Shown here one piece after another: positions 5,022-61,957 of a stretch of DNA of 64,000 bases. The stretch lies in the NCBI GenBank assembly GCA_016182235.1, contig JACOXT010000003.1, positions 451,488 to 515,487 on the forward strand. Reading direction: 5' to 3'. Position 1 is the first letter of the stretch, and each line of letters starts with the position of its first letter. The stretch comes from Candidatus Levyibacteriota bacterium (GTDB taxonomy: Bacteria > Patescibacteriota > Microgenomatia > Levybacterales > UBA12049). The position numbers and the translations under genes are program-made. The notes below the pieces were generated by a model, which was not told the DNA's origin, did no database searches, and saw only the letters and a list, made by a program, of their open reading frames with translations.

Positions 5022-8000
5022 ATGAAAATTTTTAAATGGATGTCGGATAATCTTTTGTTTGTTTTCACTTTGATCTTATTGGGACTGATTCCTCTTTACC
5101 CGAAAATCCCTCTTATTGATATAAAAAATACATGGGTGTATGTTAGGGCAGAAGATTTTTTTGTTACATTTGTTGTTTTGTTTTGGGTGGGATTAGTCTT
5201 GTTTAGAAGGGTTACTCTAAAAACACCTTTAACATTGCCGATTTTCATTTTTTGGATTATTGGCGGCATATCAACCCTCCATGGAGTGCTTCTGATTTTC
5301 CCAACCATTTCAGATGTTTTTTCCAACGTAGCCATGCTAAGCCTGCTTAGGAGAGTGGAATATTTATCTTTATTTTTTGTGGCAGTTACTTCAATAAAAG
5401 ATAAAAAAGCAATTTTTTATGTTGTTTGGGCATTGGCAATTGTACTTTTGTTGGTGGCTGGATATGGGTTTGGACAAAAATTCCTAAGCTTTCCGGCGTA
5501 TTTAACCATGAATGAAGAATTCGCGAAAGGAATTCCCATTCACCTTTCCGAGCTTTCAAGAGTGCCGTCTACGTTTGCGGGTCATTACGATCTGGCCGCT
5601 TATTTAGTTCTTGTAATCCCAATACTTATTAGCATAGTTTTTGGATTTAGGAATTTATTTGCAAAACTTTTCTTTCTTACGACATCTGTTTTGGGATTTA
5701 TACTTCTTTTCATGACCGTATCTCGAGTTTCATTTTTTGTTCTTTTGATTTCCATTGTTGTGCTTTTGATTCTTCAGAAAAAAAAATGGTTTATTGGATC
5801 TCTTCTGGTAGTGGCAGTTCTTTTTTTAAGTTTTGCTCCAAGTCTTATTGCCCGGTTTGGAGATACGGTTAAAGAAATTAATGTTTTAGTTGATGCTAGG
5901 ACAGGAGGGGCAATAGGCCAAGTAAAAGAAGTGCCTTCTGCGTATTTCAAAGATAAGATTATTAAAAAGGTGGCAATCTCCAATAAAGACGCCTTAAACG
6001 CAAGCGTTTCGGCAGTAGTTCCATTCTCCCTGATCCCTCCTATAGCCTCCCTTGTTGTTGAGGCCAACAGCCCAACAGGAGAAAATCTTCCGCAGGGAAC
6101 AAGCTATATTAATCTACCTCTGTCACCTGTTATCAAAAAGGTGGACGAGTATTATTATCAAAAATTGACTAACAAGTCTGGATTGGAATCGGAGGAAATT
6201 AGCGTTATCTATGGGGATTTTTTGATAAAAAAAGCAAAAGCATATGATCTTTCTTTTACCACAAGATTTCAAGGAGAGTGGCCAAATGCAATATTGGCTT
6301 TCAAGAGAAATATTTTTCTTGGCAGCGGTTATGGTTCGGTTAGTTTGGCGGTTGACAATAACTATCTGCGAATTTTGGGAGAATCAGGACTATTAGGATT
6401 TGTTTCATTCATATCTATCTTTTTAATTGCAGGAATTTATATCTGGAAAATACTTCCAAATGTTACTTCGCCTGTTGTCAGGAATTTTGTTTTTGGGTTT
6501 GTGGCAGGTGCTTTTGGTTTGGCGTTGAACGCGCTTCTTATTGATGTGTTCGAAGCTTCAAAAGTTGCGTTTACTCTATGGCTTTTAATGGGAATAACTC
6601 TTGGGATTTTAAGTTTGTATAAAACAGAAGATGTAGATATTCTTAAAGAACTTAAAAGAATGGTAACATCTACCGTTGCAGTTGTAGTTTATCTATTTGT
6701 TGCCTCGGTATTACTTTTGGGAGTTTCAAGTTACTTCTTTGTCGGAGACGATTTTACTTGGTTTAAGTGGGTTACAGACCCGTCCAACAGCATTATTAGC
6801 TATTTTACCAAGGCCGATGGATTTTTTTACCGCCCTGGGACAAAACTCTATTTTTACTTAATGCATTCGGTGTTTTGGCTTAATCAGTCTGTTTATCATT
6901 TTGTTTCCATATTTCTTCATTTTGCAGTTTCGGTTTTGGTATTTTTGATCGCCAAAAGAATTTTTAAAAATTATTTCTCATCTGTCGCAGCTGCCTTTTT
7001 ATTTCTTATACTAAGCGGGTATCACGAAGCAGTCTTCTGGATTTCAGCTTCTGGGTTTCTCTTTAATGCATTATTCGCGATGCTTTCTTTGCTTTCGTAT
7101 ATTTACTGGAGGGAAAAAAGGAAATCTGTTTATTTCGCAAGTGCTATAGTTTTTATATTTTTGAGCATGATGTTTCACGAACTCGGAGTAGTCGTTCCTT
7201 TTCTTCTTATTGCGTACGATTTGATTTTTGGAGAGTTTACAATCGGGAAATTTTTTAAGAAGAGCTATCTAGTTTTGCTCTCACCTATTTTACCATATCT
7301 TGCATTTCGCCTTTCTGCCAATAGTCATTGGTTTAGTGGAGATTATAGTTATAGCTTAATCAATTTTCCATTTAACTTTATAGGCAATATCATGGGATAC
7401 TTAGCTCTTGGTTTTTTCGGACCCAAGTCTATGGTTTTTTACCAGGCATTAAGAGATTTTGGAAGAAACAACACGTCCATTTCTATTTTGGTTTATTTGG
7501 TTATTGTATTTGGTGTTTTTATACTTTATAGATTGTTTGCTAAAAAGATTGAAAAACAGGAATGGAGAATTATTGTTTTTGCATCTTTATTTTTTGTTAT
7601 ATCACTCCTGCCATTTTTAGGGTTAGGAAATATGACTTCTCGCTATAGCTATTTATCGTCATTTGGGATTGTAATTCTTTTAGTTTTTTTCTTCAAGAAG
7701 ATATATTTTTACTTAACAAGTATTAGCGATAGATACGTTGGTGCTACGGCTATGACCATGATAGTAATTGTTTACTGCATTTTTCAACTATTTGGACTCC
7801 AAAATATTCATACGGATTGGAAAGTTGCCGGTGAGAAGTCTAAGAGATTTTTTATTTCAATCGAAGAATATTCTAAAGACTTTTGGATAAGAGATAGCAT
7901 GCAATTTTATTTTGTTGACATACCGATTCGAAACGGCGAGGCATGGGTATGGCCGGTAGGATTGGAAGATGCCTTGTGGTTTACATTCAAGAATCCAAAT

Positions 8001-11879: not shown

Positions 11880-13033
11880 AAATTGGTATTGACGCAAGAC
11901 TTTGGAACGAAGGAGGGGTAGGAAGATACATAAGAAATCTAATTAAGCAAATTCAGCCTTTAGATAAAAGTAATCTTTATACTTTGTTTGTTTTGTCTAA
12001 AGACTATGAAAGTATTAAGTACGAAGTATCAAGTATTAAGGAGGAAAATTGGGAACTTATAAAGACAAATATTCGGTGGCATTCGATTGAGGAGCAGTTA
12101 AAGTTTGCTAACATTTTAAACAAAGAAGAATTAGATTTGGTGCATTTTCCCTATATTTCGGTGCCGTTGAATTATCAAAAGCCATTTATCATTACAATAC
12201 ACGATTTAATTCCATATCATTATCCTTCTTCAAATGCTTCCGCTCTCCCTTTCCCTATTTACTTCTTAAAATTATTGGCATATAAATTTGTGGTGAGAGC
12301 CGCAGCAAGAAAAGCGCAAAAAATTATCGCGCCCTCAAATTTTACAAAAAAGGAAATTGTAGAACATCTAAAAATTGATCCAAGAAAAGTAATAGTAACT
12401 TACGAAGGAGTAAATAGTAAAATTACAAATTCAAAATCTCAAATTCCAAAAAAATCCCAAAATACTAAATACAAAATACTAAATACAAAATACTTTTTAT
12501 ATGTAGGAAACGCGTTTCCGCATAAGAATCTTGAGGTATTGATAGAAGCTTTCAATCTTTTCCGTCAAGAGCATCCTGGTATTTTTCTTGTCTTTGTCGG
12601 CAAGGAGGATTTCTTCTACAGTCGATTAAAAAATGAGGTTTACAAGCGTAAAATTTCAGACGTAGTTTTTTTACATAATATAATTGATGGGCAATTAGTA
12701 AGTTTGTACAGAAGCGCAATTGCATTTGTTTCACCTTCTCTTATGGAAGGATTTGGTCTGCCGGTTCTTGAGGCAATGGTAAATAGATGTTTGGTTTTGG
12801 CATCGGATATTCCAACACATCGAGAAATTTGTGGCAAGGTTGCCTTATACTTTGATCCTAATAATGTTGGGGATCTAACTCAAAAACTAGAATCCATTCA
12901 CTCTAATGATATGTATTATTATAGTGAAAAAAAAAGGGGGTTTGATCGAGCGAAAGTGTTCTCTTGGGAAAAGATGGCAAGAGAAACTTTAAAAATATAT
13001 GAAAGTTGCGTTGGTTTACGACAGAGTGAATAA
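11876..13033 (+). CDS. GT4-family glycosyltransferase
   Basis: C-terminal EGFGLPVLEAM. Contains the AT-rich in-frame insertion at 12418-12493. Confidence 0.8.
   Translation: MKIGIDARLWNEGGVGRYIRNLIKQIQPLDKSNLYTLFVLSKDYESIKYEVSSIKEENWELIKTNIRWHSIEEQLKFANILNKEELDLVHFPYISVPLNYQKPFIITIHDLIPYHYPSSNASALPFPIYFLKLLAYKFVVRAAARKAQKIIAPSNFTKKEIVEHLKIDPRKVIVTYEGVNSKITNSKSQIPKKSQNTKYKILNTKYFLYVGNAFPHKNLEVLIEAFNLFRQEHPGIFLVFVGKEDFFYSRLKNEVYKRKISDVVFLHNIIDGQLVSLYRSAIAFVSPSLMEGFGLPVLEAMVNRCLVLASDIPTHREICGKVALYFDPNNVGDLTQKLESIHSNDMYYYSEKKRGFDRAKVFSWEKMARETLKIYESCVGLRQSE
12418..12493. repeat. AT-rich ~70-bp in-frame insertion (A/C/T heptamer-like tracts) in GT4, homologous to the murE copy at 29515-29585
   Basis: aaaattacaaattcaaaatctcaaattccaaaaaaatcccaaaat... 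encodes KITNSKSQIPKKSQNTKYKILNTKY. The murE copy is aaaattccaaactcaaaatctcaaattacaaataaatccaaaatt. Confidence 0.65.
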
Positions 13034-24617: not shown

Positions 24618-24652
24618 GTAAAGTAGTTTATTGCTATTTCAAAAGGAGCCAG

Positions 24653-27600
24653 TCAATTGTTATTTCTCTTAAAATGTTCTCTTATTTTTTCAACTAATTC
24701 AGGAGAGTAGTGTTCGCTTTGAATATTTCTTCTTCCTCTTAAAATTCTAAACCATTCAGGATGATCCTCTCGAAATTGGGTAGCGAATTCACTAACTCGG
24801 GGACTTATTATACCTAGTTCTTTAGCCAAAGTAGTTTTATTTAACCAACCAACTTCCAAATCTGAAGGCCTAGCATTCTCTTGTTTTATCAACGAGGTAA
24901 GTTCTGGAGATACAAAGTAACCAATGTGGCGACTTTCATTCCGAAATACTCCCAAAAGGGTTGGGTGAGATTCTTTATACTGACTTAACAATCTTAATAC
25001 AGAAGCTTCAGATAACCTCAGGTTATTAGATAGTTCAATCGTATTTGACCAGCCAGGTGGTGGCGCTACTACTTCCAAATACTCATTTTTTATCAGTTCT
25101 ACTAATTCAGGTGAAAAGTATTGAGACAGATGGTGTTTTCTTCCTACCAATACTTTAAAATATTCAGGATGTGATTTTCCGTATCTTTTCACGTAGAATC
25201 TAACATTGACAGCATCAATACCAAAAATTTGTTCTATATCATAACTATTCATCCATCCTGTTGGAGGGGTTTCTCTACCTATAATTTCATTTCTTAATAG
25301 CTTTTCTATTTCAGGAGCAACATATTCTCGTACCTTACTTTTTTGTCTTTCTCGATCAATATATATTCTAAAGAGCTGTGGGTAAGTTTTACGATACTCT
25401 TCAATTCTTTTATTTACAGTTGTTCTAGAAATGCCTAATTCTTTGTGAATAACACTATGGTCAATCCATCCTTCATCTGGTTTATTAAGAAGCAGAGTGA
25501 TTTCATCTCTAAGTAAAGTAGCAAGCTCTGGAGAAAAATGCTCAGAAATTCTACCGCCTTGTGTCGTTCTGAACAATTGAATTCCCTCGGCTTGAATGTC
25601 TCTATTTTTTCCTACAAGTGTATTAATAACAGCTGTACTGATTCCAAACTCTTTTCCTAGTAAACTTGGACGCACCCAGCCCTCGCTAGCAACTGGAACT
25701 TTATCTAATTTTGTCTTTAAATAATCAATGATAGAAGCTGATATATATTCTGCGACTCTTCCTCCTCTTTTTTTGAATATTCCAAACATTTCAGGATGAC
25801 TTTCTTTATATCTTGCAGTGAATCTTTTAATAGTTTTTCTATCAACTTTTAATAAACGGGCAGCCTCTCTTTCCGTTACCCAACCTTCAGGTGGAATGTC
25901 AGCAGTTACTAGATTGTCTCTTGTCTGTTGTCTAATTATACCAACTAATTCAGGAGATAAGTATTCAATTATTTGCCCTCCTTCTCTTTTGAAAACTCTA
26001 AAATATCTTGGGATATTTACTCGATATTCATTAATAATTCTTCTAAGCGTTGGGCGCGAGATATTTAACTCACTTTCGATTGAAGTTAAACTTTGCCATC
26101 CTTCTATTGAAGCCTGTAATTTTTCTTTTGTATCTTTGATCATTTCTACCAATTTGGGGGAAACATATTCGTACACCCGTCCTCTAGAGCTACGAAATAA
26201 TTTAAAATCTTCCGAGTATAAGTCTCTTAGGTTGTCTAAAATTCGACGCATAGTTTGCGGACCAACTCGATAAGTGTTATTTAAAGCTGTAATGCTTAAC
26301 CACCCTTCCTGAACAGGTTGATACTTTTGTTCAACCACCTGTTGAACAATTTTCATTACCTCTTCGGCTTCTGTGATAACTTTTAAGCCGTAAATCTCTA
26401 TTTGAGGGTAAAGTATAGTTCCGGTGTCGGTATCTTCTCTAGGATAATCTGGAGGATTATCTTTCCTAAATATATGGGCAGATTCTAGTATTTGAGCAAA
26501 TGAAACCGGAAAACGATTCGGATCTCCAAAATTGTCTATAAAGTCGACGATATAGGCATGCTTGAATGGATTGGCTGGGTCCGGTCTTAATACGCGTCCA
26601 GCCCTTTGTTCAGCAACCACAGGAGATGCAGTTGGTCGAAGATTAAGACATACATTGACGCTAGGATCATCAAAACCCTGTATAAGAAGATCGGCATTAC
26701 ATAATACCTTTATTTCCCCTGTTTTGTATTTTCTTAATATGGTTTTCTGTTCTGCTGGCAACTGATATCCGCTAACAACTGCTGCCTTTATACCATTTTC
26801 TTCAAAACGTTTAGCTAAATCTGTCGCATGATTAACTGTGACACAATAAGCTAATGCCTTTTGATCTAGGAACATAGCTTTATATAGATCGACCGCAGCT
26901 GAATTTCGAGTTGTTATGTTTATTGCTCGTTCAAGATCTTCATCCTTATACTCCCCTGTGCTTGTTATTTTAACTTCACTTAAATCAACATCTGTTTTTC
27001 CAATATACACAGATAAAGAAGAAAGCATCCCCAGCTCTATTGCTTCTCTAATAGGCATGCTATGAATCTCGGTATTTAGCAGGTTACCCAGGTGTTTATC
27101 TTTTGTGTATCTAGGAGTTGCAGTAAAACCAAGTTTTACAGCGTTTGTAAACTTGCGTACTGCTTCCATTCTTCTTGGGCTTAACGATTCATGTGCCTCA
27201 TCCAAAATAAGCAGTTCGTAATCTTCAGGTTTCATTTTTACCGACTCAACATCTTTTAAAAACGACGCATACGTAATAATTGTTACTGGTTTTTCATATT
27301 CTTTTGATCGCGCATAAACTTTTCCAGTTTCAACAGTCGGCGCAAACTCTTCAAATCTCTCTTCTGTTTGGTCAACCAAGATTTGCGTCGGCACAACTAT
27401 GAGAGTTTTAAGGTCGGTGGCTTCGACAAACTCGGTAAATACTACAGTTTTTCCAGAACCAGTAGGCAATCGTATATAACCTTCTGTAACTCCTTCCTCA
27501 ATAGATTTTCTCAATGCTTCAAATGCGTTCATTTGAGGATCAAAAAGAGTTCTCTCGTCTTCGTTTTGGGAATAATAGGTATTAATATATCTATCAAGTG

Positions 27601-27853
27601 CGTTGAGAGCATGTATTCTCCTTTCATATAATAGATTAGGTTCTTCATTTCTTTTTTGTCTGCGTAAAGTATCAACATACACTTTGTATCTGGTAGGAAA
27701 TTTTTCTTTAAGTTCGCTTGAAGTTGTATCAAATAGTACTCCATTATCTAACATTGGAGATATGGGACTACCTAAAGCTTCTGAAACATTGTTAACTTGC
27801 CTACCAAGTTGTTCTATTGTTTTTGGTTTTGCTCGCTCGATCATAGCCAGCAA
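24653..27853 (-). CDS. SF2 helicase (ResIII/XPB-like core) fused to eight tandem ~68-aa winged-HTH-like (excisionase/MerR-like) repeats
   Basis: Walker A LPTGSGKTV, DEAH box ILDEAHE and motif VI QRAGRVLR fall within aa 125-425. From aa 516, eight repeats follow the pattern EGW-x6-LAKELGISRxTV-x6-YRxxHPExF-x7-GGR-x3-EY(F)SPELVxxI. Confidence 0.85.
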   Translation of the reverse strand: MLAMIERAKPKTIEQLGRQVNNVSEALGSPISPMLDNGVLFDTTSSELKEKFPTRYKVYVDTLRRQKRNEEPNLLYERRIHALNALDRYINTYYSQNEDERTLFDPQMNAFEALRKSIEEGVTEGYIRLPTGSGKTVVFTEFVEATDLKTLIVVPTQILVDQTEERFEEFAPTVETGKVYARSKEYEKPVTIITYASFLKDVESVKMKPEDYELLILDEAHESLSPRRMEAVRKFTNAVKLGFTATPRYTKDKHLGNLLNTEIHSMPIREAIELGMLSSLSVYIGKTDVDLSEVKITSTGEYKDEDLERAINITTRNSAAVDLYKAMFLDQKALAYCVTVNHATDLAKRFEENGIKAAVVSGYQLPAEQKTILRKYKTGEIKVLCNADLLIQGFDDPSVNVCLNLRPTASPVVAEQRAGRVLRPDPANPFKHAYIVDFIDNFGDPNRFPVSFAQILESAHIFRKDNPPDYPREDTDTGTILYPQIEIYGLKVITEAEEVMKIVQQVVEQKYQPVQEGWLSITALNNTYRVGPQTMRRILDNLRDLYSEDFKLFRSSRGRVYEYVSPKLVEMIKDTKEKLQASIEGWQSLTSIESELNISRPTLRRIINEYRVNIPRYFRVFKREGGQIIEYLSPELVGIIRQQTRDNLVTADIPPEGWVTEREAARLLKVDRKTIKRFTARYKESHPEMFGIFKKRGGRVAEYISASIIDYLKTKLDKVPVASEGWVRPSLLGKEFGISTAVINTLVGKNRDIQAEGIQLFRTTQGGRISEHFSPELATLLRDEITLLLNKPDEGWIDHSVIHKELGISRTTVNKRIEEYRKTYPQLFRIYIDRERQKSKVREYVAPEIEKLLRNEIIGRETPPTGWMNSYDIEQIFGIDAVNVRFYVKRYGKSHPEYFKVLVGRKHHLSQYFSPELVELIKNEYLEVVAPPPGWSNTIELSNNLRLSEASVLRLLSQYKESHPTLLGVFRNESRHIGYFVSPELTSLIKQENARPSDLEVGWLNKTTLAKELGIISPRVSEFATQFREDHPEWFRILRGRRNIQSEHYSPELVEKIREHFKRNNN

Positions 27854-27910
27854 ATTTTATAACAATATGCCTTTTATTACAAACTTCTATACTATGTTAT
27901 ACTGGATTGT

Positions 27911-28486
27911 ATGGCTGGGAGGACGCATGATTTGGGTGCTTTTACTGCGCTAACTTATACGGTGGCTACGCAGCCCCTACACGAGATGACGCTTGCGACA
28001 GCGATCGTTGCCTTTTTGGCTAACATGGTTGGAGGGTTGGCGCCTGATATTGACCAGCCAACCGGAAATTTGTGGAACAGAGTTCGGGGAGGAAGGTTGG
28101 TTAGCAGACTTGTTACTCCTCTTCTTGGAGGACATCGTTTTATCTCACATTCGTTATTAGGCATATTACTATTTGGGTTCGTTGTGAGTAAACTTCTAGA
28201 TACTGTGAGTTCAGTTCTACTCGTTGATATGAATATTGTTTGGTGGGCTTTTATGATAGGATTTGTGTCTCACCTAATGCTAGATACACTTAGTCGAGAA
28301 GGAGTTCCATGGCTATTTCCGATTCCAATTCGTATCGGAATTCCTCCATTTCGGTTTCTCCGTATAAAAACCGGTGGTATAGTCGAAAAATCATTTGCCT
28401 TTCCCATGCTTTTGATTGCAAATATTTATATGTATTATATCCACTACCCCAAATTTATGGACTTCTTACGGCACTACATAAAGTAG
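27911..28486 (+). CDS. membrane-bound metal-dependent hydrolase, DUF457/YdjM-like
   Basis: 191 aa, GC-rich compared with its neighbours. Has His-rich TM helices. The family assignment is from memory. Confidence 0.5.
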   Translation: MAGRTHDLGAFTALTYTVATQPLHEMTLATAIVAFLANMVGGLAPDIDQPTGNLWNRVRGGRLVSRLVTPLLGGHRFISHSLLGILLFGFVVSKLLDTVSSVLLVDMNIVWWAFMIGFVSHLMLDTLSREGVPWLFPIPIRIGIPPFRFLRIKTGGIVEKSFAFPMLLIANIYMYYIHYPKFMDFLRHYIK

Positions 28487-28518
28487 AGAAGAGGTTAAGA
28501 AAAGGGTATAATGGGGAC

Positions 28519-29757
28519 ATGCTACAGAGAATTAAGAATATTTATCACCTTGGAAATGGCATTCTGGGTAATTTGCGGTTTGGGTTTCCATCACATAAGC
28601 TTACTGTAATAGGCGTTACCGGAACTGATGGTAAAACAACAACTACAAGTCTAATATACCATGTCCTTTCTACATCTGGACGAAATGCATCGATGATAAG
28701 CTCAGTTGGGGCAGTAATAGGAGGAAGAGAGTATGATGTGGGATTTCATGTTACAACTCCTTCTTCCTGGGCGCTTCAGAAGTTTATTAAAGAGGCAGAA
28801 AAGGGCTTTCTGGTTCTTGAGACGACGTCTCATGCCTTGGATCAATTTAGAGTTTGGGGAATAAAATTTGACATTGGAGTTTTAACCAATATCACCCATG
28901 AACACCTAGATTACCACAAGACTTACCATAAATACGTTGAGGCAAAAGCAAAGCTTCTTGAAATGAGCCGAGTAGCGATTGTGAATAGAGACGACAAATC
29001 ATACCCGTTAATAAATTCGAAATTCGCTCGCCTCGCTGCGAAGCGGGAAATTCGAAATTCGAAATTAATTACCTATGGGATGAAAGATAATGCGGATTTA
29101 AATCCAAAAAAATTTCCATTTAAAACAAATATGATTGGAGAGTTCAATATTTACAACAGTCTTGCCGCAATAGCGGTATGTAGAGCTCTTGGTATTCCAG
29201 ATGAAGATATTAGAACGGGTTTAAAGTCATTTAAGCCTCCGATTGGCAGAGAAGAAGTAGTTTATAAGAAAGATTTTACCGTTATGATTGATTTTGCACA
29301 TACACCTAACGCCTTTGAGGAAATTCTGAGTTCAATTAAACCGAGTATAAAAGGCAGACTTATTCACGTATTTGGGTCGGCGGGACTTAGAGACAATACC
29401 AAAAGACCAATTATGGGGAGAGTCTCATCAAAATATGCGGATATTATTGTTTTGACCTCTGAAGATCCAAGATCGGAATCGGTTGAGAAGATTTCAGACG
29501 AGATAGAATCAGGAATAAAAATTCCAAACTCAAAATCTCAAATTACAAATAAATCCAAAATTCAAATATATAAAATTCCAAATCGACAAGAAGCAATTCA
29601 ATTTGCTATTAAGATTGCTAGAAAAGGAGATTTGGTCTTGACAACGGGGAAATCGCACGAAAAATCAATGAATTATGGACATGGAGAAGTTCCGTGGGAC
29701 GAGTACAGCGCTGTACGAAAAGCATTAAAAGGTTTGGGATTAAAGATTAAGGATTAA
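28519..29757 (+). CDS. murE: UDP-N-acetylmuramoyl-tripeptide ligase (MurE-type Mur ligase)
   Basis: P-loop VIGVTGTDGKTTT and a C-terminus GDLVLTTGKSHEKSMNYG resembling MurE GKGHE. Start set at ATG 28519 (MLQRIKN). Carries two in-frame mini-insertions (29014-29066 and 29515-29585). Confidence 0.75.
   Translation: MLQRIKNIYHLGNGILGNLRFGFPSHKLTVIGVTGTDGKTTTTSLIYHVLSTSGRNASMISSVGAVIGGREYDVGFHVTTPSSWALQKFIKEAEKGFLVLETTSHALDQFRVWGIKFDIGVLTNITHEHLDYHKTYHKYVEAKAKLLEMSRVAIVNRDDKSYPLINSKFARLAAKREIRNSKLITYGMKDNADLNPKKFPFKTNMIGEFNIYNSLAAIAVCRALGIPDEDIRTGLKSFKPPIGREEVVYKKDFTVMIDFAHTPNAFEEILSSIKPSIKGRLIHVFGSAGLRDNTKRPIMGRVSSKYADIIVLTSEDPRSESVEKISDEIESGIKIPNSKSQITNKSKIQIYKIPNRQEAIQFAIKIARKGDLVLTTGKSHEKSMNYGHGEVPWDEYSAVRKALKGLGLKIKD
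29014..29066. repeat. mini-insertion in murE: GAAATTC heptamer duplications flanking GC palindrome GCTCGCCTCGCTGCGAAGCGGG
   Basis: aaattcGAAATTC[gctcgcctcgctgcgaagcggg]GAAATTCGAAATTCGAAATT. In frame. Confidence 0.7.
29515..29585. repeat. AT-rich in-frame insertion in murE, homologous (~85% over ~50 nt, same reading frame) to 12418-12493
   Basis: Encodes KIPNSKSQITNKSKIQIYKIPNRQ. The tail tccaaaattcaaatata matches tccgaaattcaaatatc of the copy at 2905-2972. Confidence 0.65.
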
Positions 29758-53169: not shown

Positions 53170-56097
53170 ATGTTCGAAGTTGTAGATCCAAAATTAAATT
53201 TCCCCAAGCTCGAAGAGGACCTTCTTAAAATGTGGTACAAAGAGGGAATTGTGAAAAAATATCTTCAAAAAAATAATTCTTCCAAGAAGAAATTTTCTTT
53301 TCTTGATGGGCCAATAACTGCTAACAATCCCATGGGTGTTCACCATGCCTGGGGAAGAACTTACAAAGATCTCTGGCAAAGATTTTGGAACATGAGAGGC
53401 TATAAGCAAAGATTCCAGAATGGATTTGATGAACAAGGGCTTTGGGTCGAGGTAGAAGTTGAAAAAGAATTGGGTTTGAAGAATAAGAAAGATATTGAAA
53501 ATTTAATTCCGGGCAATAAGTTTGCAAGTCTTGAGAAATTTATAAATCTTTGTAAAGAAAGAGTAAGAAAATTTTCTAAGATTCAAACCGAACAAAGCAA
53601 GAGGCTTGGATATTTTATGGACTGGGACAACTCTTATCATACCTCTTCGGATCGAAATAACTACACAATCTGGAATTTCTTAAAAATCGTCAATGAAAAA
53701 GGCTGGCTTTACAAGGGACGAGACAGTGTGCCGTGGTGCCCAAGATGCGGGACTGCAATTTCTCAACATGAAATTTTGACTGAGGAATACAAAGAACTTA
53801 CTCATAAAACAGTCGTTTTTAAACTTACAATTAAAGGGAGAAACAAAGAATATTTACTTGCTTGGACTACAACGCCCTGGACAATTCCGGGAAATGTCGC
53901 GCTTGCAGTTGACAATAATCTATCGTATTGGAAGATGGAAAACGCCAAAGGCGAGAAAATAATTATTGTTAATCCGACAGCAAATGGTGATCTTAATAAG
54001 GAAGCTATGCTTGTTAATAGGCTAGGATTAATAGAAGGTTATGTAAAAGTAGAGGAACTTAAGGGAAAAGATCTTGTAGGACTTGGATACGAGGCGCCTT
54101 ATGATAGTTTGCCTTCTGTTAAAAAAACCCTTGGGAATTATACGCATCGGGTAGTTGCAACTGATCCCCAAGTATTACCGATTAATCCAGCTGAGGGTAC
54201 TGGAATTGTCCATATTGCTCCTGGCGCGGGCGCGGAAGATTTTAAGCTTAGCAAGAAAGAAAAAATACCTGCAATTGAGGAAATTGACGAAAGTGGTGTA
54301 TTTATAGACGGATTTGATTTTATGTCTGGAAAGCATGTTAAAAAAGCAATGCCTCAGATTTTGGAGGACCTTGAAAAACGTAACTTTGCTTTTAAAATTT
54401 TTGACTATATGCATCGCTATCCTACATGCTGGAGGTGTAAAACTGAGTTAGTCTGGAGAGTAGTTGATGAATGGTATATAGCAATGGATAAAGCATTAAA
54501 GTCAAAAGTCAAAAGTCAAAAGTCAAAAGTTGAAGAAAATAAAACATATAGAGAACAGATGATTGAGGTAGCTAAGAAGATTAACTGGATACCTAAATGG
54601 GGATTAGATAGGGAACTTGATTGGCTTTCCAACATGCACGATTGGCTTATAAGCAAAAAGCGTTTTTGGGGACTGGCATTACCAATTTGGGAATGCAAAG
54701 AGTGCGGAAGTTTTGAGGTGATTGGCGGACGGGAGGAGCTTAAAGTTCGAGCATTTAGCGGTTGGAAGGAGTTCGATGGAAATAGCCCCCATAGACCATG
54801 GATTGATCAAATAAAAATAAAATGCAAAAATTGTAGATCAATAATGTCACGAATACCTGATGTTGGAAACCCATGGCTTGATGCAGGTATTGTTCCTTTC
54901 TCAACATTGCCCGCTGGTTGGTTTCCAGCAGATTTTATTACTGAAAGTTTTCCAGGGCAATTTAAAAATTGGTTTTACTCTCTTATTGCAATGGCAACAG
55001 CTATTAAAAATGAACCTCCTTTTAAAACAGTTTTGGGGTTTGCTTCAGTTCGAGACGAAAAAGGAGAGGAAATGCATAAATCAAAAGGAAATGCTATTGA
55101 ATTCAATGAAGCCGCAGGCAAGATTGGGGGAGACGTCATGAGGTGGCTTTACACGACTCAAAAGCCTGAACTCAATCTTAATTTTGGTTATGGACCCGCA
55201 ACAGACGTAAAAAGAAGATTCTATTTAATACTTTGGAACAGTTATAAATTTTTTGTTGACTACGCAAAAGCTTCTTCATGGGAATGTGGAAGAAATGTTA
55301 AAGATTTAACAATACTAGATAAATGGATTCTGGCAAGATTAACAGAAGTAGTTTTCTTGGTAAATGAATCTTTAGAAAGATTCGATGCAAGTCGCGCCTC
55401 TTTCGCAATAGAGGAATTTGTAGTGAAAGATTTTTCTACATGGTACATAAGAAGATCTCGAGACAGGGTTTCGCCAATTTCAGACGCAAATGACAGAAAT
55501 ACTTGTTTTTCAGTTATGTACGGAGTCTTGGTTACGCTTTCCAAATTACTTGCTCCTTTTACGCCATTTATTGCTGAGGAAATATTTAGAAATTTGGCAA
55601 ATGAAGAATCAGTACATTTACAAAGTTATCCGAAGGGCGACAAGTCGCTATTGAATAGAAATCTTATTGAGGATATGAAGAAAGTAAGGGAAGTTGTCGA
55701 AGCTGGACACGCAAAACGAAAAGAAATTGGGATAAGAGTAAGACAACCGCTACCCAAATTTTCAATTTTCAATTTTCAATTTTCAATTGAAGAGAAGCTA
55801 ATAGATCTTATTAGGGATGAGTTAAATGTTAAAAATGTTATTTTCAAGATGAGAAAAGGACCGTTTTCTGTGGAGTTCGATACGGAGATTACAAACGATC
55901 TTAAAAATGAAGGTGAGGCAAGAGAAATAGTTAGAAGAATTCAGCAGGAACGAAAAATTATAGGTACGACATTGAATGAGAGGGTAAATGTCACTTTGGA
56001 GAGTTGGCCGGCTTCATATAGCAATTACATTAAAAGAAATGCGTTAGTTGGAAGTCTCAAAAAAGGAGACGAATTTTCGGTCGCAAGGCAGAAATGA
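53170..56097 (+). CDS. ileS: isoleucyl-tRNA synthetase, type 2 (eukaryote/archaeal-like)
   Basis: FLDGPITANNPMGVHHAWGRTYKDL..GFDEQGLWVE matches the type-2 IleRS N-terminus. KMSKS-like HKSKGN present. Carries in-frame repeat tracts at 54498-54531 and 55757-55789. Confidence 0.85.
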   Translation: MFEVVDPKLNFPKLEEDLLKMWYKEGIVKKYLQKNNSSKKKFSFLDGPITANNPMGVHHAWGRTYKDLWQRFWNMRGYKQRFQNGFDEQGLWVEVEVEKELGLKNKKDIENLIPGNKFASLEKFINLCKERVRKFSKIQTEQSKRLGYFMDWDNSYHTSSDRNNYTIWNFLKIVNEKGWLYKGRDSVPWCPRCGTAISQHEILTEEYKELTHKTVVFKLTIKGRNKEYLLAWTTTPWTIPGNVALAVDNNLSYWKMENAKGEKIIIVNPTANGDLNKEAMLVNRLGLIEGYVKVEELKGKDLVGLGYEAPYDSLPSVKKTLGNYTHRVVATDPQVLPINPAEGTGIVHIAPGAGAEDFKLSKKEKIPAIEEIDESGVFIDGFDFMSGKHVKKAMPQILEDLEKRNFAFKIFDYMHRYPTCWRCKTELVWRVVDEWYIAMDKALKSKVKSQKSKVEENKTYREQMIEVAKKINWIPKWGLDRELDWLSNMHDWLISKKRFWGLALPIWECKECGSFEVIGGREELKVRAFSGWKEFDGNSPHRPWIDQIKIKCKNCRSIMSRIPDVGNPWLDAGIVPFSTLPAGWFPADFITESFPGQFKNWFYSLIAMATAIKNEPPFKTVLGFASVRDEKGEEMHKSKGNAIEFNEAAGKIGGDVMRWLYTTQKPELNLNFGYGPATDVKRRFYLILWNSYKFFVDYAKASSWECGRNVKDLTILDKWILARLTEVVFLVNESLERFDASRASFAIEEFVVKDFSTWYIRRSRDRVSPISDANDRNTCFSVMYGVLVTLSKLLAPFTPFIAEEIFRNLANEESVHLQSYPKGDKSLLNRNLIEDMKKVREVVEAGHAKRKEIGIRVRQPLPKFSIFNFQFSIEEKLIDLIRDELNVKNVIFKMRKGPFSVEFDTEITNDLKNEGEAREIVRRIQQERKIIGTTLNERVNVTLESWPASYSNYIKRNALVGSLKKGDEFSVARQK
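54498..54531. repeat. (AAAGTC)x5 hexamer tandem repeat inside ileS (encodes KSKVKSQKSKV)
   Basis: Seen directly: aaagtcaaaagtcaaaagtcaaaagtcaaaagt. Confidence 0.8.
55757..55789. repeat. (AATTTTC)x4.7 heptamer tandem repeat inside ileS (encodes KFSIFNFQFSI)
   Basis: Seen directly: aattttcaattttcaattttcaattttcaattg. Confidence 0.8.
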
Positions 56098-59393: not shown

Positions 59394-59465
59394 GAGTCCG
59401 TAGCTCAGCGGTAGAGCGTTGCATTCACATTGCAAATGTCGGAGGTTCAAATCCTCCCGGGCTCA
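59394..59465 (+). tRNA. tRNA-Val (anticodon CAC)
   Basis: Manual cloverleaf. 7-bp acceptor stem (GAGTCCG/CGGGCTC with one G-U), D arm GCTC-AGCGGTA-GAGC, anticodon arm TTGCA-TTCACAT-TGCAA, T arm GGAGG-TTCAAAT-CCTCC. A73 discriminator, and no encoded CCA. Confidence 0.85.
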
Positions 59466-59569
59466 CTAGAAAATGGCTGTTAATATCAGGAGTGGATTTT
59501 ACTTTTGTATAAACAAATACACCTGCCTGTATTTTAGAAGTGCTTTGCTCGATTATTTTTTTAAGTTCA

Positions 59570-60898: not shown

Positions 60899-61957
60899 AT
60901 GAATGTTTTATTTTTATCTCGCTTATTTTATCCCCATATTGGAGGTGTCGAGAAGCACGTTTTGGAAATAAGTAAGATTTTGGTTGAAAAAGGACACAAA
61001 ATAACAATTATTACAGAACAATACTCAAGAGACCTTCCGAAAGAAGAAGATTTTAACGGAATTAGAGTATTAAGAATATTTACAGGACAAGACGATTGGT
61101 TTAAGAAATTTAGAATCTGGAAAGAATTGTTTAAATTAAAAAAACTAATCAGAAATGCTAGCATAGTCCATTGTCACGATGTGTTTTTTTGGTACTTCCC
61201 ATTTCTTTTTTTATACCCCAAGAAAAAAGTATATGTGACATTTCATGGGTATGAAGATTACCCGATTCCCAAAAAGGCGGTATTGGTAAGAAGACTCTCT
61301 GAAAAATTATCTAAGGGAAATATATGTATTGGAGACTTTATGAAAAAATGGTATGGAACAGAACCAACATTTGTGACATACGGAGGGGTTGACAAATATC
61401 AAATATCAAACATTAAATATCAAAAAGATGAGAGATTAAAAGATCCAAATTCTGCAGTCTTTGTTGGCAGATTGGATGAGCAGACAGGAATAAAAACTTA
61501 TTTGAAAGCTTTTAAGATGATAAAGAAGAAAATTAAAAATTTTAAATTATTGGTGGTAGGAGACGGTAAATTCAAAAAACATATTGTTAAAAATGTTCGA
61601 GGAGTAGGTTTTCAGTTGAACCCAGAAAAATATATTAGAGAATACCGATTTGCATTTGTTTCTCGCTATCTATCAATTCTTGAAGCCTTTGTCTCAAAAA
61701 GACTAGTCTTTGCCGTTTACGATAACCCTTTGAAGGAAGATTATCTTAAAATGTCTCCATTTGCGAAATATATAATTGTTGCCAGAAATTCAAAAAAACT
61801 TTCGGACGCAGTTTTTTACTTTTTAAACAATCCGAATGAAGAGAAAAAAATGCTAAACAAAGCGTATAATTGGGTTAATAAGCAGACATGGGAAAAAGTG
61901 ACAGACACATATTTGAATCTTTGGGGTTTCAAGACAGAAAATATAATTTTTCCTTGA
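60899..61957 (+). CDS. GT4-like glycosyltransferase
   Basis: N-terminus MNVLFLSRLFYPHIGGVEKHVLEISKIL has the GT4 N-domain pattern. Carries the AAATATC heptamer tract at 61394-61421. Confidence 0.6.
   Translation: MNVLFLSRLFYPHIGGVEKHVLEISKILVEKGHKITIITEQYSRDLPKEEDFNGIRVLRIFTGQDDWFKKFRIWKELFKLKKLIRNASIVHCHDVFFWYFPFLFLYPKKKVYVTFHGYEDYPIPKKAVLVRRLSEKLSKGNICIGDFMKKWYGTEPTFVTYGGVDKYQISNIKYQKDERLKDPNSAVFVGRLDEQTGIKTYLKAFKMIKKKIKNFKLLVVGDGKFKKHIVKNVRGVGFQLNPEKYIREYRFAFVSRYLSILEAFVSKRLVFAVYDNPLKEDYLKMSPFAKYIIVARNSKKLSDAVFYFLNNPNEEKKMLNKAYNWVNKQTWEKVTDTYLNLWGFKTENIIFP
61394..61421. repeat. (AAATATC) heptamer tandem tract inside GT4-like CDS (encodes KYQISNIKYQ)
   Basis: aaatatcaaatatcaaacattaaatatc. 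Confidence 0.7.

Follow-up and report, generated by a model that had tools for sequence, protein, structure and literature searches.

Among described proteins, the nearest to the one reported here are RadD (YejH) of Escherichia coli, the archaeal XPB/Rad25 helicases and the 953-amino-acid (aa) 'putative helicase' of structure 7clg, which we take to be the type IV restriction enzyme SauUSI. In layout it follows a design known from proteins with the Pfam HA domain (PF03457), where a superfamily 2 (SF2) helicase is followed by tandem small helical domains that are thought to bind DNA; a nuclear magnetic resonance structure of that domain has reportedly been published. Here we describe a gene in a 64,000-nucleotide stretch of a Candidatus Levyibacteriota bacterium (Patescibacteriota; contig JACOXT010000003.1, positions 451,488 to 515,487), called the window below. 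Its product joins an SF2 motor to eight tandem repeats resembling winged helix-turn-helix (wHTH) domains, and the gene stands antisense between ftsI and murE of the division and cell wall (dcw) cluster. Sequence comparison places it in a family found almost only in Patescibacteria, in which one motor is carried with exchangeable tails.

The window protein shares with RadD and archaeal XPB/Rad25 the two-lobe ResIII/Helicase_C motor and the DEAH form of motif II, and RadD is its best NCBIfam match (1.4e-26). The scores are, however, far below the cut-offs of these families, with 92.9 bits against an equivalog cut-off of 720 for RadD (NF053632) and 58.5 bits against 610 for XPB/Rad25 (NF045503). 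The structure of RadD has a cysteine zinc finger after RecA lobe 2, whereas the window protein has no CxxC zinc finger and holds only three cysteines (337, 385 and 402). The RED motif of XPB is found in it only at aa 472, in poorly conserved linker, and at aa 1028, in repeat 8, both outside the RecA lobes. It is set apart from both proteins also by a family-specific N-terminus of ~100 aa and linker, and by its eight-module wHTH array, where RadD has a C-terminal domain and XPB has damage-recognition/thumb elements. Weak ERCC3_RAD25_C matches are found in relatives.

When the core was compared with the sequences of solved structures, 7clg came out best (6.5e-22, residues 111-452), followed by XPB/Rad25 (6e-17) and RadD (1e-14), but the motor alone is shared with 7clg: the window protein is without a phospholipase D (PLD) match among the Pfam families listed for it, without the HxK motif (H.K....D) and without a modified-DNA reader of the SauUSI type. 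PADLOC-DB 2.0 gave partial matches of the helicase core only (PbeA, 8e-23; mREase_IV, profile positions 239-570 of 953), the second of which agrees with our reading of 7clg as SauUSI. In PHROGs the core matches phrog_16, 'DNA helicase' (8.5e-70). Judged by these comparisons, the protein carries an intact DNA-type SF2 motor of the ResIII branch and is not a member of the RadD, XPB or SauUSI type.

The tail also differs from its nearest parallels. Where the HA domain consists of three helices, the window repeat of ~68 aa is a winged HTH whose wing is a beta-hairpin, and PF03457 is absent from the best 25 of the 30 Pfam families matched by the whole protein and from the single-repeat matches with E up to 10; the window family, in contrast to HA-domain helicases, is almost entirely confined to Patescibacteria. 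Resemblance to the centromere-binding domain of pSK1 Par, RacA, the N-domains of MerR and phage Xis amounts to a sequence identity of only 9-20%. Domains of the MerR/excisionase kind act singly in dimers, whereas up to 15 of the present repeats (type A below) stand in tandem in one chain, and these add a further helix at the C-terminus together with the signature W...HPEWF...EYSPEL. An analogy may further be drawn with the HsdS domains of type I restriction and with polymorphic toxin tips, whose target-recognition domains or tips are exchanged as cassettes by recombination at the junction with a constant chassis; no restriction or toxin activity is evident in the window protein, however, and its variable end consists of DNA-binding-like repeats.

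The motor and the eight-repeat tail

The open reading frame (ORF) of 1066 codons, with its SF2 core and eight ~68-aa repeats from aa 516, was found as the original prediction had described it (Table 1). It opens with TTG-CTG-GCT-ATG, and since a 100% identical public protein of 1063 aa (P0001, 'DEAD/DEAH box helicase family protein', from a Candidatus Levybacteria metagenome-assembled genome, MAG) begins at the ATG, this codon is probably the true start. The helicase motifs named earlier are present, although the residue positions given for them were slightly off (the actual span is 129-423): LPTGSGKTV lies at 129-137, ILDEAHE at 216-222 and QRAGRVLR at 416-423, with GFTATP at 242-247. Pfam assigns ResIII to aa 102-248 (5e-29, 101.7 bits, cut-off 22.5) and Helicase_C to aa 330-423 (4e-12, 47 bits, cut-off 23.5), and the residues of motifs I, II, III and VI are invariant in 38 family members, as is proper to an SF2 helicase.

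The repeats measure 66-72 aa each and are 18-34% identical in pairs, with only G-W invariant, and a profile made from the eight recovers each of them (1e-23 to 1e-28) and has no other match in the window. They are kept at the protein and not at the DNA level, as had been claimed: Tandem Repeats Finder detected no DNA-level array across the tail, and a trace of repetition is left only where SPELV and HPEWF are encoded, as patches of 30-41 nt with 66-80% identity, spaced in multiples of 204 nt. No Pfam model covers the repeat, so it is not a known domain of that collection; single repeats give sub-threshold matches to HTH_29, HTH_28, HTH_23 and HTH_17. For HTH_17 (PF12728) the whole protein scores 20.4 bits and the best single repeat 18.0, against a gathering threshold of 27. 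With HTH_29 (PF13551) the whole protein reaches 44.9 against a threshold of 28.1 by summing eight weak repeats, the best of which scores 19.9.

From relatives 361 repeats were gathered, and 138 diverse ones were aligned and used for an AlphaFold2 model of repeat 8 (predicted local distance difference test, pLDDT, 84). The model has a short strand, two helices, a beta-hairpin and a C-terminal helix in this order, and its HTH with a beta-hairpin wing can be superposed on solved members of the MerR/excisionase winged HTH class; the N-terminal domain of P1 ParA is also among its fold matches. Assignment of the repeat to this class is thus supported at the level of the predicted fold, and the likeness asserted in the original prediction stands there while its HTH_17 score stays below threshold. 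The tail has an isoelectric point (pI) of 9.5 and a net charge of +15, compared with pI 5.4 for the motor module of ~515 aa, and within the repeats lysine and arginine are enriched in the wing loop and where helix 2 begins. From the fold class, the charge and the DNA-acting fusion partners described below, we infer that the tail binds DNA.

Table 1. Window coordinates of the helicase gene, its modules and the slot in which it lies
Feature	Window positions	Strand	Remark
Cargo slot, ftsI stop to murE start	24618..28488		holds helicase and ydjM; empty in 28/49 relatives
Whole ORF, 1066 codons from TTG	24653..27853	-	probable gene 24653..27844
N-terminal ~100-aa helical region of constant module	27551..27844	-	no Pfam match; R52, L80, N81, D84 and Y86 conserved across the family
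SF2 RecA lobe 1 (ResIII/DEAD)	27110..27550	-	motif I GSGKT 27443-27469; motif II DEAH 27188-27208; motif III TATP 27113-27130
SF2 RecA lobe 2 (Helicase_C)	26585..26866	-	motif VI QRAGRVLR 26585-26608
Linker closing constant module	26309..26584	-	family-wide motif I.G..V....EEVM(K/R)IV at 26345-26365
wHTH repeat 1 (aa 516-583)	26105..26308	-	repeat profile
wHTH repeat 2 (aa 584-655)	25889..26104	-	repeat profile
wHTH repeat 3 (aa 656-723)	25685..25888	-	repeat profile; most basic of the eight (pI 10.0)
wHTH repeat 4 (aa 724-793)	25475..25684	-	repeat profile
wHTH repeat 5 (aa 794-864)	25262..25474	-	repeat profile
wHTH repeat 6 (aa 865-932)	25058..25261	-	repeat profile
wHTH repeat 7 (aa 933-1000)	24854..25057	-	repeat profile
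wHTH repeat 8 (aa 1001-1066)	24656..24853	-	repeat profile; used for structure model (pLDDT 84)
YdjM/DUF457 gene	27911..28486	+	divergent from helicase; independent, more widely shared slot occupant, not a helicase partner

Exchange of tails and motors in the family, and other chassis of the repeat

The architecture had at first appeared to be one of its own, but it is shared by a large family of the candidate phyla radiation (CPR, Patescibacteria). Hundreds of relatives of 600-1300 aa were returned by a protein search, and they have in common the N-terminal ~100 aa, the motor and the linker ending in I.G..V....EEVM(K/R)IV, past which their tails diverge. Type A, the window repeat, is present in 1-10 copies. 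Type B, with 1-9 copies, is INT_rpt (PF14882, the 'Integrase repeat unit' of Pfam, function unknown), type C is a unit of ~85 aa (P0049, P0062, P0070 and P0106), and type D is a W/F-rich helical unit of ~80 aa (P0090 and P0108), the last two without a Pfam match; divergent A-like forms are further tails on the same motor. INT_rpt takes the same tandem C-terminal position after the same linker on sister helicases, but it is a different repeat of ~50 aa. Pfam detects it in P0120 and it is not among the Pfam matches listed for the window protein, and a type-B profile made from the P0120 repeats has 0 matches in the window protein versus 1-9 in sister proteins such as P0120.

Profile-profile comparison (hhalign) aligned types A and C with 80.6% probability (E 1.3e-5) over 30 columns of the recognition helix and wing, which suggests that type C is a remote relative of type A. 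Types B and D gave no detectable relation to type A by the same comparison (A with INT_rpt, 31.6% probability over 6 columns), and no other pair of tails was significant. In one further member, P0080 (1051 aa), the motor and three type-A repeats are joined with regions 2 and 4 of sigma-70 (PF04542/PF04545), which may point to a link with transcription or may be an artefact of assembly or gene calling.

The type-A repeat is also found beyond the helicases. HMMER, run exhaustively against 1.84 billion cluster representatives, returned 1,143 proteins with the repeat; 353 reach E <= 1e-30, and the copy number goes up to 15. In one layout an N-terminal type-A array precedes SNF2-rel_dom, Helicase_C and Methyltransf_11 in proteins of 1400-1830 aa; in another the type-A repeat is joined with a domain of 245 aa that in fold is matched best by DNA-binding double-wing-like domains; and there are repeat-only proteins. 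As examples of the first, a second large architecture of CPR, P0126, P0130, P0138, P0121 and P0201 (1100-1830 aa) have 6-14 N-terminal type-A repeats, an SNF2 ATPase and mostly a class I methyltransferase; to our knowledge, no function has been described for such SNF2-methyltransferase proteins with type-A arrays. Because the array occurs on helicase, SNF2-methyltransferase and double-wing-like chassis, it is a portable module attached to partners that act on DNA.

A scan of one genome per species of GTDB found the family at 65 loci, and those from named organisms are almost all from Patescibacteria (Microgenomates, Paceibacteria-type groups, Saccharibacteria and Gracilibacteria). Many of the 65 are labelled generically or as non-CPR ('uncultured Gammaproteobacteria', 'bacterium'), and the 'uncultured Gammaproteobacteria' carriers may be mislabelled CPR bins. 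A few MAGs labelled Bdellovibrionota have members at 31-35% identity, which may be real occurrences outside CPR. Such odd labels, 'uncultured Gammaproteobacteria' or Bdellovibrionota, are borne by L015, L024, L026, L029, L037, L042 and L053 and by L059, L061 and L064. Three weak matches (21-38% identity) come from Bacteroidota and Clostridia genomes. As far as these searches reach, then, family and repeat belong almost only to Patescibacteria, and no description of either was found in the searchable literature. That it is a phage gene family was considered and rejected: cultured phages match the core alone at 25-31% identity, and IMG/VR yielded one weak locus.

The motor and the tail have had different histories in some members. 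In P0003, P0004 and P0005 the cores are 65-68% and the tails 54-57% identical to the window protein, and a repeat compared with the repeat at the same position in orthologs is 40-77% identical, against 15-38% off the diagonal, which agrees with the earlier claim that the array is old and maintained. P0006, by contrast, has a core 83% and a tail only 37% identical to the window protein. The tail nearest to that of P0006 belongs to P0011 (51%), a protein with a core 66-67% identical to both P0006 and the window protein. The locus of P0006 (L008) is arranged like the window, with mraZ-rsmH-ftsL-ftsI, then cargo including an antisense helicase, then murE.

Synonymous and nonsynonymous rates between the window and L008 were calculated by the Nei-Gojobori method. 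For mraZ, rsmH, ftsI and murE the aa identity is 61-69% and the proportion of synonymous differences (pS) 0.70-0.75, with a synonymous rate (dS) of at least 2, that is, saturated. The helicase core has 83% aa identity, pS 0.49, dS 0.79 and a nonsynonymous to synonymous ratio (dN/dS) of 0.12, while tail repeats 1-7 have 35% aa identity and pS 0.72, with dS again saturated; the tail dN/dS of 0.25, to be read with that saturation, gives no sign of positive selection. Nucleotide identity to L008 is 81.8% over window 26292-27845 and ends ~16 nt from the core/tail boundary at 26308, just inside repeat 1. Since synonymous sites of the core are unsaturated and those of the flanking genes and of repeats 1-7 are saturated, the two histories differ, and the sequences indicate that the motor was exchanged between lineages long after the genomes diverged, or that the tail was replaced on one of them, with the junction as the point of recombination.

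The slot between ftsI and murE

The placement given in the original prediction, antisense between ftsI and murE and beside DUF457, is correct. On the plus strand, mraZ, rsmH, an ftsL-like ORF and ftsI lie upstream, YdjM/DUF457, murE, murF and murA downstream. The murE ORF called mechanically starts at 28309 and overlaps ydjM by 178 nt; alignments of relatives put the MurE start at ~28489, just past the ydjM stop. A 32-nt repeat in two copies (window 29519-29583) lies inside the 3' part of murE. From relatives, 80 murE loci were retrieved (MurE identity 53-72%), of which 49 contain both ftsI and murE. The two genes directly adjoin in 28 of the 49. In the other 21 they are separated by 0.6-8 kb of varied cargo, which includes ydjM by itself (in five loci), small ORFs, ddl and genes for an AAA_5 ATPase, a LAGLIDADG/HNH-repeat protein and an unrelated ResIII helicase. 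The junction is therefore a hotspot for cargo in Levybacteria-like genomes.

Individual junctions illustrate this range. L079 has an AAA_5 (McrB-like) ATPase with several ORFs of unknown kind, L101 a LAGLIDADG_3 and HNH_repeat protein, L083 the unrelated ResIII helicase and L140 ddl; L136, L146, L147 and L150 are among the five with ydjM alone, and the junction of L138 also carries cargo. In L117, a gene for a type-A array and SNF2-methyltransferase lies antisense and directly upstream of murE, in the place and orientation of the window helicase. Here (L117:17-6642, minus strand; murE at 6747) the array is split into ORFs of 578 and 494 aa by one in-frame stop codon and is followed, 2 nt out of frame, by a 1132-aa ORF with SNF2, Helicase_C and Methyltransf_11; it may be a pseudogene, a sequencing error or a case of recoding.

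Among 75 loci with the helicase, only the window and L008 have it at the ftsI-murE junction, and in L022 and L042 an FtsI-like ORF lies a few kb away. Orthologs of 61% identity lie elsewhere, between DUF763 and BipA (L001) or beside VanW (L007). The link with DUF457 that had been suggested did not hold, as this gene does not recur across the 75 loci and ydjM occurs at the junction without the helicase in five relatives. The helicase is accessory cargo in a variable slot and not a component of the dcw cluster, because 28 of 49 relatives have nothing in the slot, the helicase stands at this junction in just one further genome (L008), orthologs are found elsewhere and the gene runs opposite to the cluster; the synteny in relatives that would make it a conserved cluster member is not there.

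P0030, a more distant member (L005:4235-14449, and L006), has a different surrounding, apparently an integrated element. Its neighbours there encode a large serine recombinase and Replic_Relax, HTH_3, DUF5677 and PLDc_2 proteins, and the element is flanked by genes for signal peptidase and for polysaccharide synthesis. In the window itself, genes are strongly biased to the plus strand and the GC skew is positive throughout, except that it inverts locally at the helicase; no other long gene of the first ~41 kb is on the minus strand. A tRNA-Val lies at 59394-59466. A/T-rich heptamer tandem repeats are found at 2904-2969, 12458-12494, 54498-54530, 55757-55788 and 61393-61424, with units such as AAAATTC (x9.9), AAATACT (x5), AAAGTCA (x4.7) and AATTTTC (x4.6).

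Proposed mechanism, alternatives and meaning

The protein is, in our estimation, somewhat more probably than otherwise a stand-alone double-stranded DNA translocase or helicase targeted by a multivalent DNA-binding tail. The basic tail would make many weak-to-moderate contacts with duplex DNA, one winged helix per site, and would tether or target the motor, which would then track along or unwind the bound DNA. Because the tail would decide which DNA is engaged, evolution would swap tail cassettes at the linker and keep the motor constant, the motor itself being exchanged between lineages. The roles put forward in the original prediction, a mobile-element or defence translocase or a nucleoid factor, stay candidates. 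Among possible roles we lean towards DNA conflict, with the protein acting on DNA that is foreign or mobile or else on behalf of a mobile element, without going so far as to call it probable; the cassette-like tails, the residence in a cargo slot and the likeness of the motor to restriction-type ATPases incline us this way. A RadD/XPB-like role in repair or restart is placed second and is less likely, but it has to be kept in mind because no effector or partner was found, selection is purifying and orthologs with eight repeats are stable.

In its strict form this second possibility would be a vertically inherited housekeeping helicase for repair or replication restart, a CPR substitute for RadD, XPB or a RecG-type enzyme whose tail raises the affinity for DNA. 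We hold it to be unlikely. RadD as best NCBIfam match, XPB and RadD among the nearest solved relatives, the ERCC3_RAD25_C matches, the spread of the family over many CPR classes, the low dN/dS of the core, the repeats kept in position among orthologs, neighbours that are mostly ordinary housekeeping genes and an unexceptional composition all speak for it. They are met by scores far below the RadD and XPB cut-offs, the missing zinc finger, a position that is not conserved with a slot empty in most relatives, a core exchanged horizontally after the genomes diverged, swapped tails and the apparent integrated element around P0030. A defence or anti-mobile-element motor, in which the variable tail recognises the invader and the translocase disrupts its replication or recruits a nuclease encoded elsewhere, is rather unlikely too, although a little less so. 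It draws on 7clg as the closest solved core, on the matches to type IV restriction enzymes and PbeA, on the cassette-like exchange of tails on an unchanging motor, where recombination falls at the junction, on the AAA_5 ATPase, the LAGLIDADG/HNH-repeat protein and the other ResIII helicase found in the slot of relatives, and on the same array in SNF2-methyltransferase fusions. However, the protein has no PLD HxK motif and no nuclease among the Pfam matches listed, its PADLOC matches span only a generic helicase core, no partner gene is conserved over the 75 loci and the tail gives no sign of positive selection. Membership in a known defence system of PADLOC was rejected on account of the core-only matches and the lack of a recurring partner, and the association with defence proposed in the original prediction found neither a defence partner nor a nuclease domain.

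Two other explanations are improbable. If the repeats bound RNA or protein, such as RNA polymerase or ribosomal components, the protein could be a remodeller of RNA or ribonucleoprotein or a transcription factor-like motor, and the sigma-70 fusion of P0080 and the several repeats that are not basic would fit; but the core is of the ResIII/DEAH type and not a DEAD-box one, its nearest relatives all act on DNA, and the other hosts of the array (SNF2, double-wing-like domain) are DNA-associated. Most improbable of all, and disfavoured, is a functional member of the division and cell wall machinery, for example a RacA- or FtsK-like motor that anchors or clears the chromosome at the septum. The fold similarity of the repeat to RacA and plasmid partition Par, the same position in L008 and the array-bearing SNF2 gene antisense to murE in L117 could be cited for it. 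Against these are the adjoining ftsI and murE of most relatives, the 61%-identity orthologs that lie elsewhere, the placement at the junction in just 2 of 75 helicase loci and the orientation, by which the gene is not co-transcribed with the cluster.

Several observations weigh against a mobile, conflict-driven translocase with a DNA-binding tail. No family of neighbouring ORFs, clustered all-against-all, recurs in more than 5 of the 75 helicase loci, so no partner gene was found, and neither a nuclease nor another effector domain was found in the protein among the Pfam matches listed or by motif inspection, which is atypical for defence. The GC content of the helicase, 0.362, equals the window ORF mean (standard deviation 0.03, maximum 0.436), so composition gives no evidence for transfer, and around 24618-28488 a search for insertion scars or att-like repeats found only short repeats at chance level. 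The idea of a horizontal insertion into the dcw cluster, put forward in the original prediction, is thus carried by the cargo slot and the exchange of the motor half and not by GC anomaly or scars, and its 'GC-rich DUF457' is so only mildly (0.427). Members of the family are essentially missing from viral collections. That the tail binds DNA is argued from fold and charge, yet the array includes three neutral or acidic repeats among its eight, and the best-conserved residues (W5, Y-R, HPEWF, G, EYSPELV) look like core-packing or structural positions and not DNA contacts. The strict position-by-position conservation of repeats in some orthologs would fit a stable cellular function equally well.

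With these points counted, we still prefer a tail-targeted translocase, and one extension of it may be mentioned although it is quite improbable: the type-A array could be a modular, position-specific DNA reader similar to a transcription activator-like effector, with one repeat per site, grafted as a cassette onto at least three chassis. Patescibacteria would then have a lineage-specific means of programmable targeting for DNA motors, driven by conflict with mobile DNA. It would be compatible with the data because repeats keep a positional identity, tails are swapped at the junction, the motor is mobile and two different array-bearing motors occupy the same antisense site upstream of murE in separate genomes. 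A search for specificity positions in four close orthologs found nearly all surface columns to be repeat-specific and localised no reading surface. Nor was any long-period DNA array readable by eight modules, such as the 8-10x tandem motif looked for on the earlier suggestion, found in the 64-kb window, which has only heptamer micro-repeats.

The general design, an SF2 helicase with tandem small nucleic-acid-binding domains, is already known from HA-domain proteins. New are the repeat family, its near-restriction to Patescibacteria, its abundance, its three chassis, the exchange of cassettes at the linker and the ftsI|murE hotspot. A profile hidden Markov model family of its own for the repeat would improve the annotation of thousands of CPR proteins now called 'DEAD/DEAH box helicase' or 'hypothetical'. 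In this family nature offers a clean case of one motor kept constant while its nucleic-acid-binding tail is exchanged as a cassette, with the breakpoint at the domain junction. Should the tail read DNA module by module, this would add a new scaffold for recognition; a non-specific tail would still show how a generic translocase is retargeted in reduced genomes. In their tiny genomes the Patescibacteria keep over 1,100 clusters (formed at 50% identity) of proteins with this repeat, which is borne by several DNA-acting chassis and reaches 15 copies in an array, and such expense in reduced genomes implies an important lineage-specific function.

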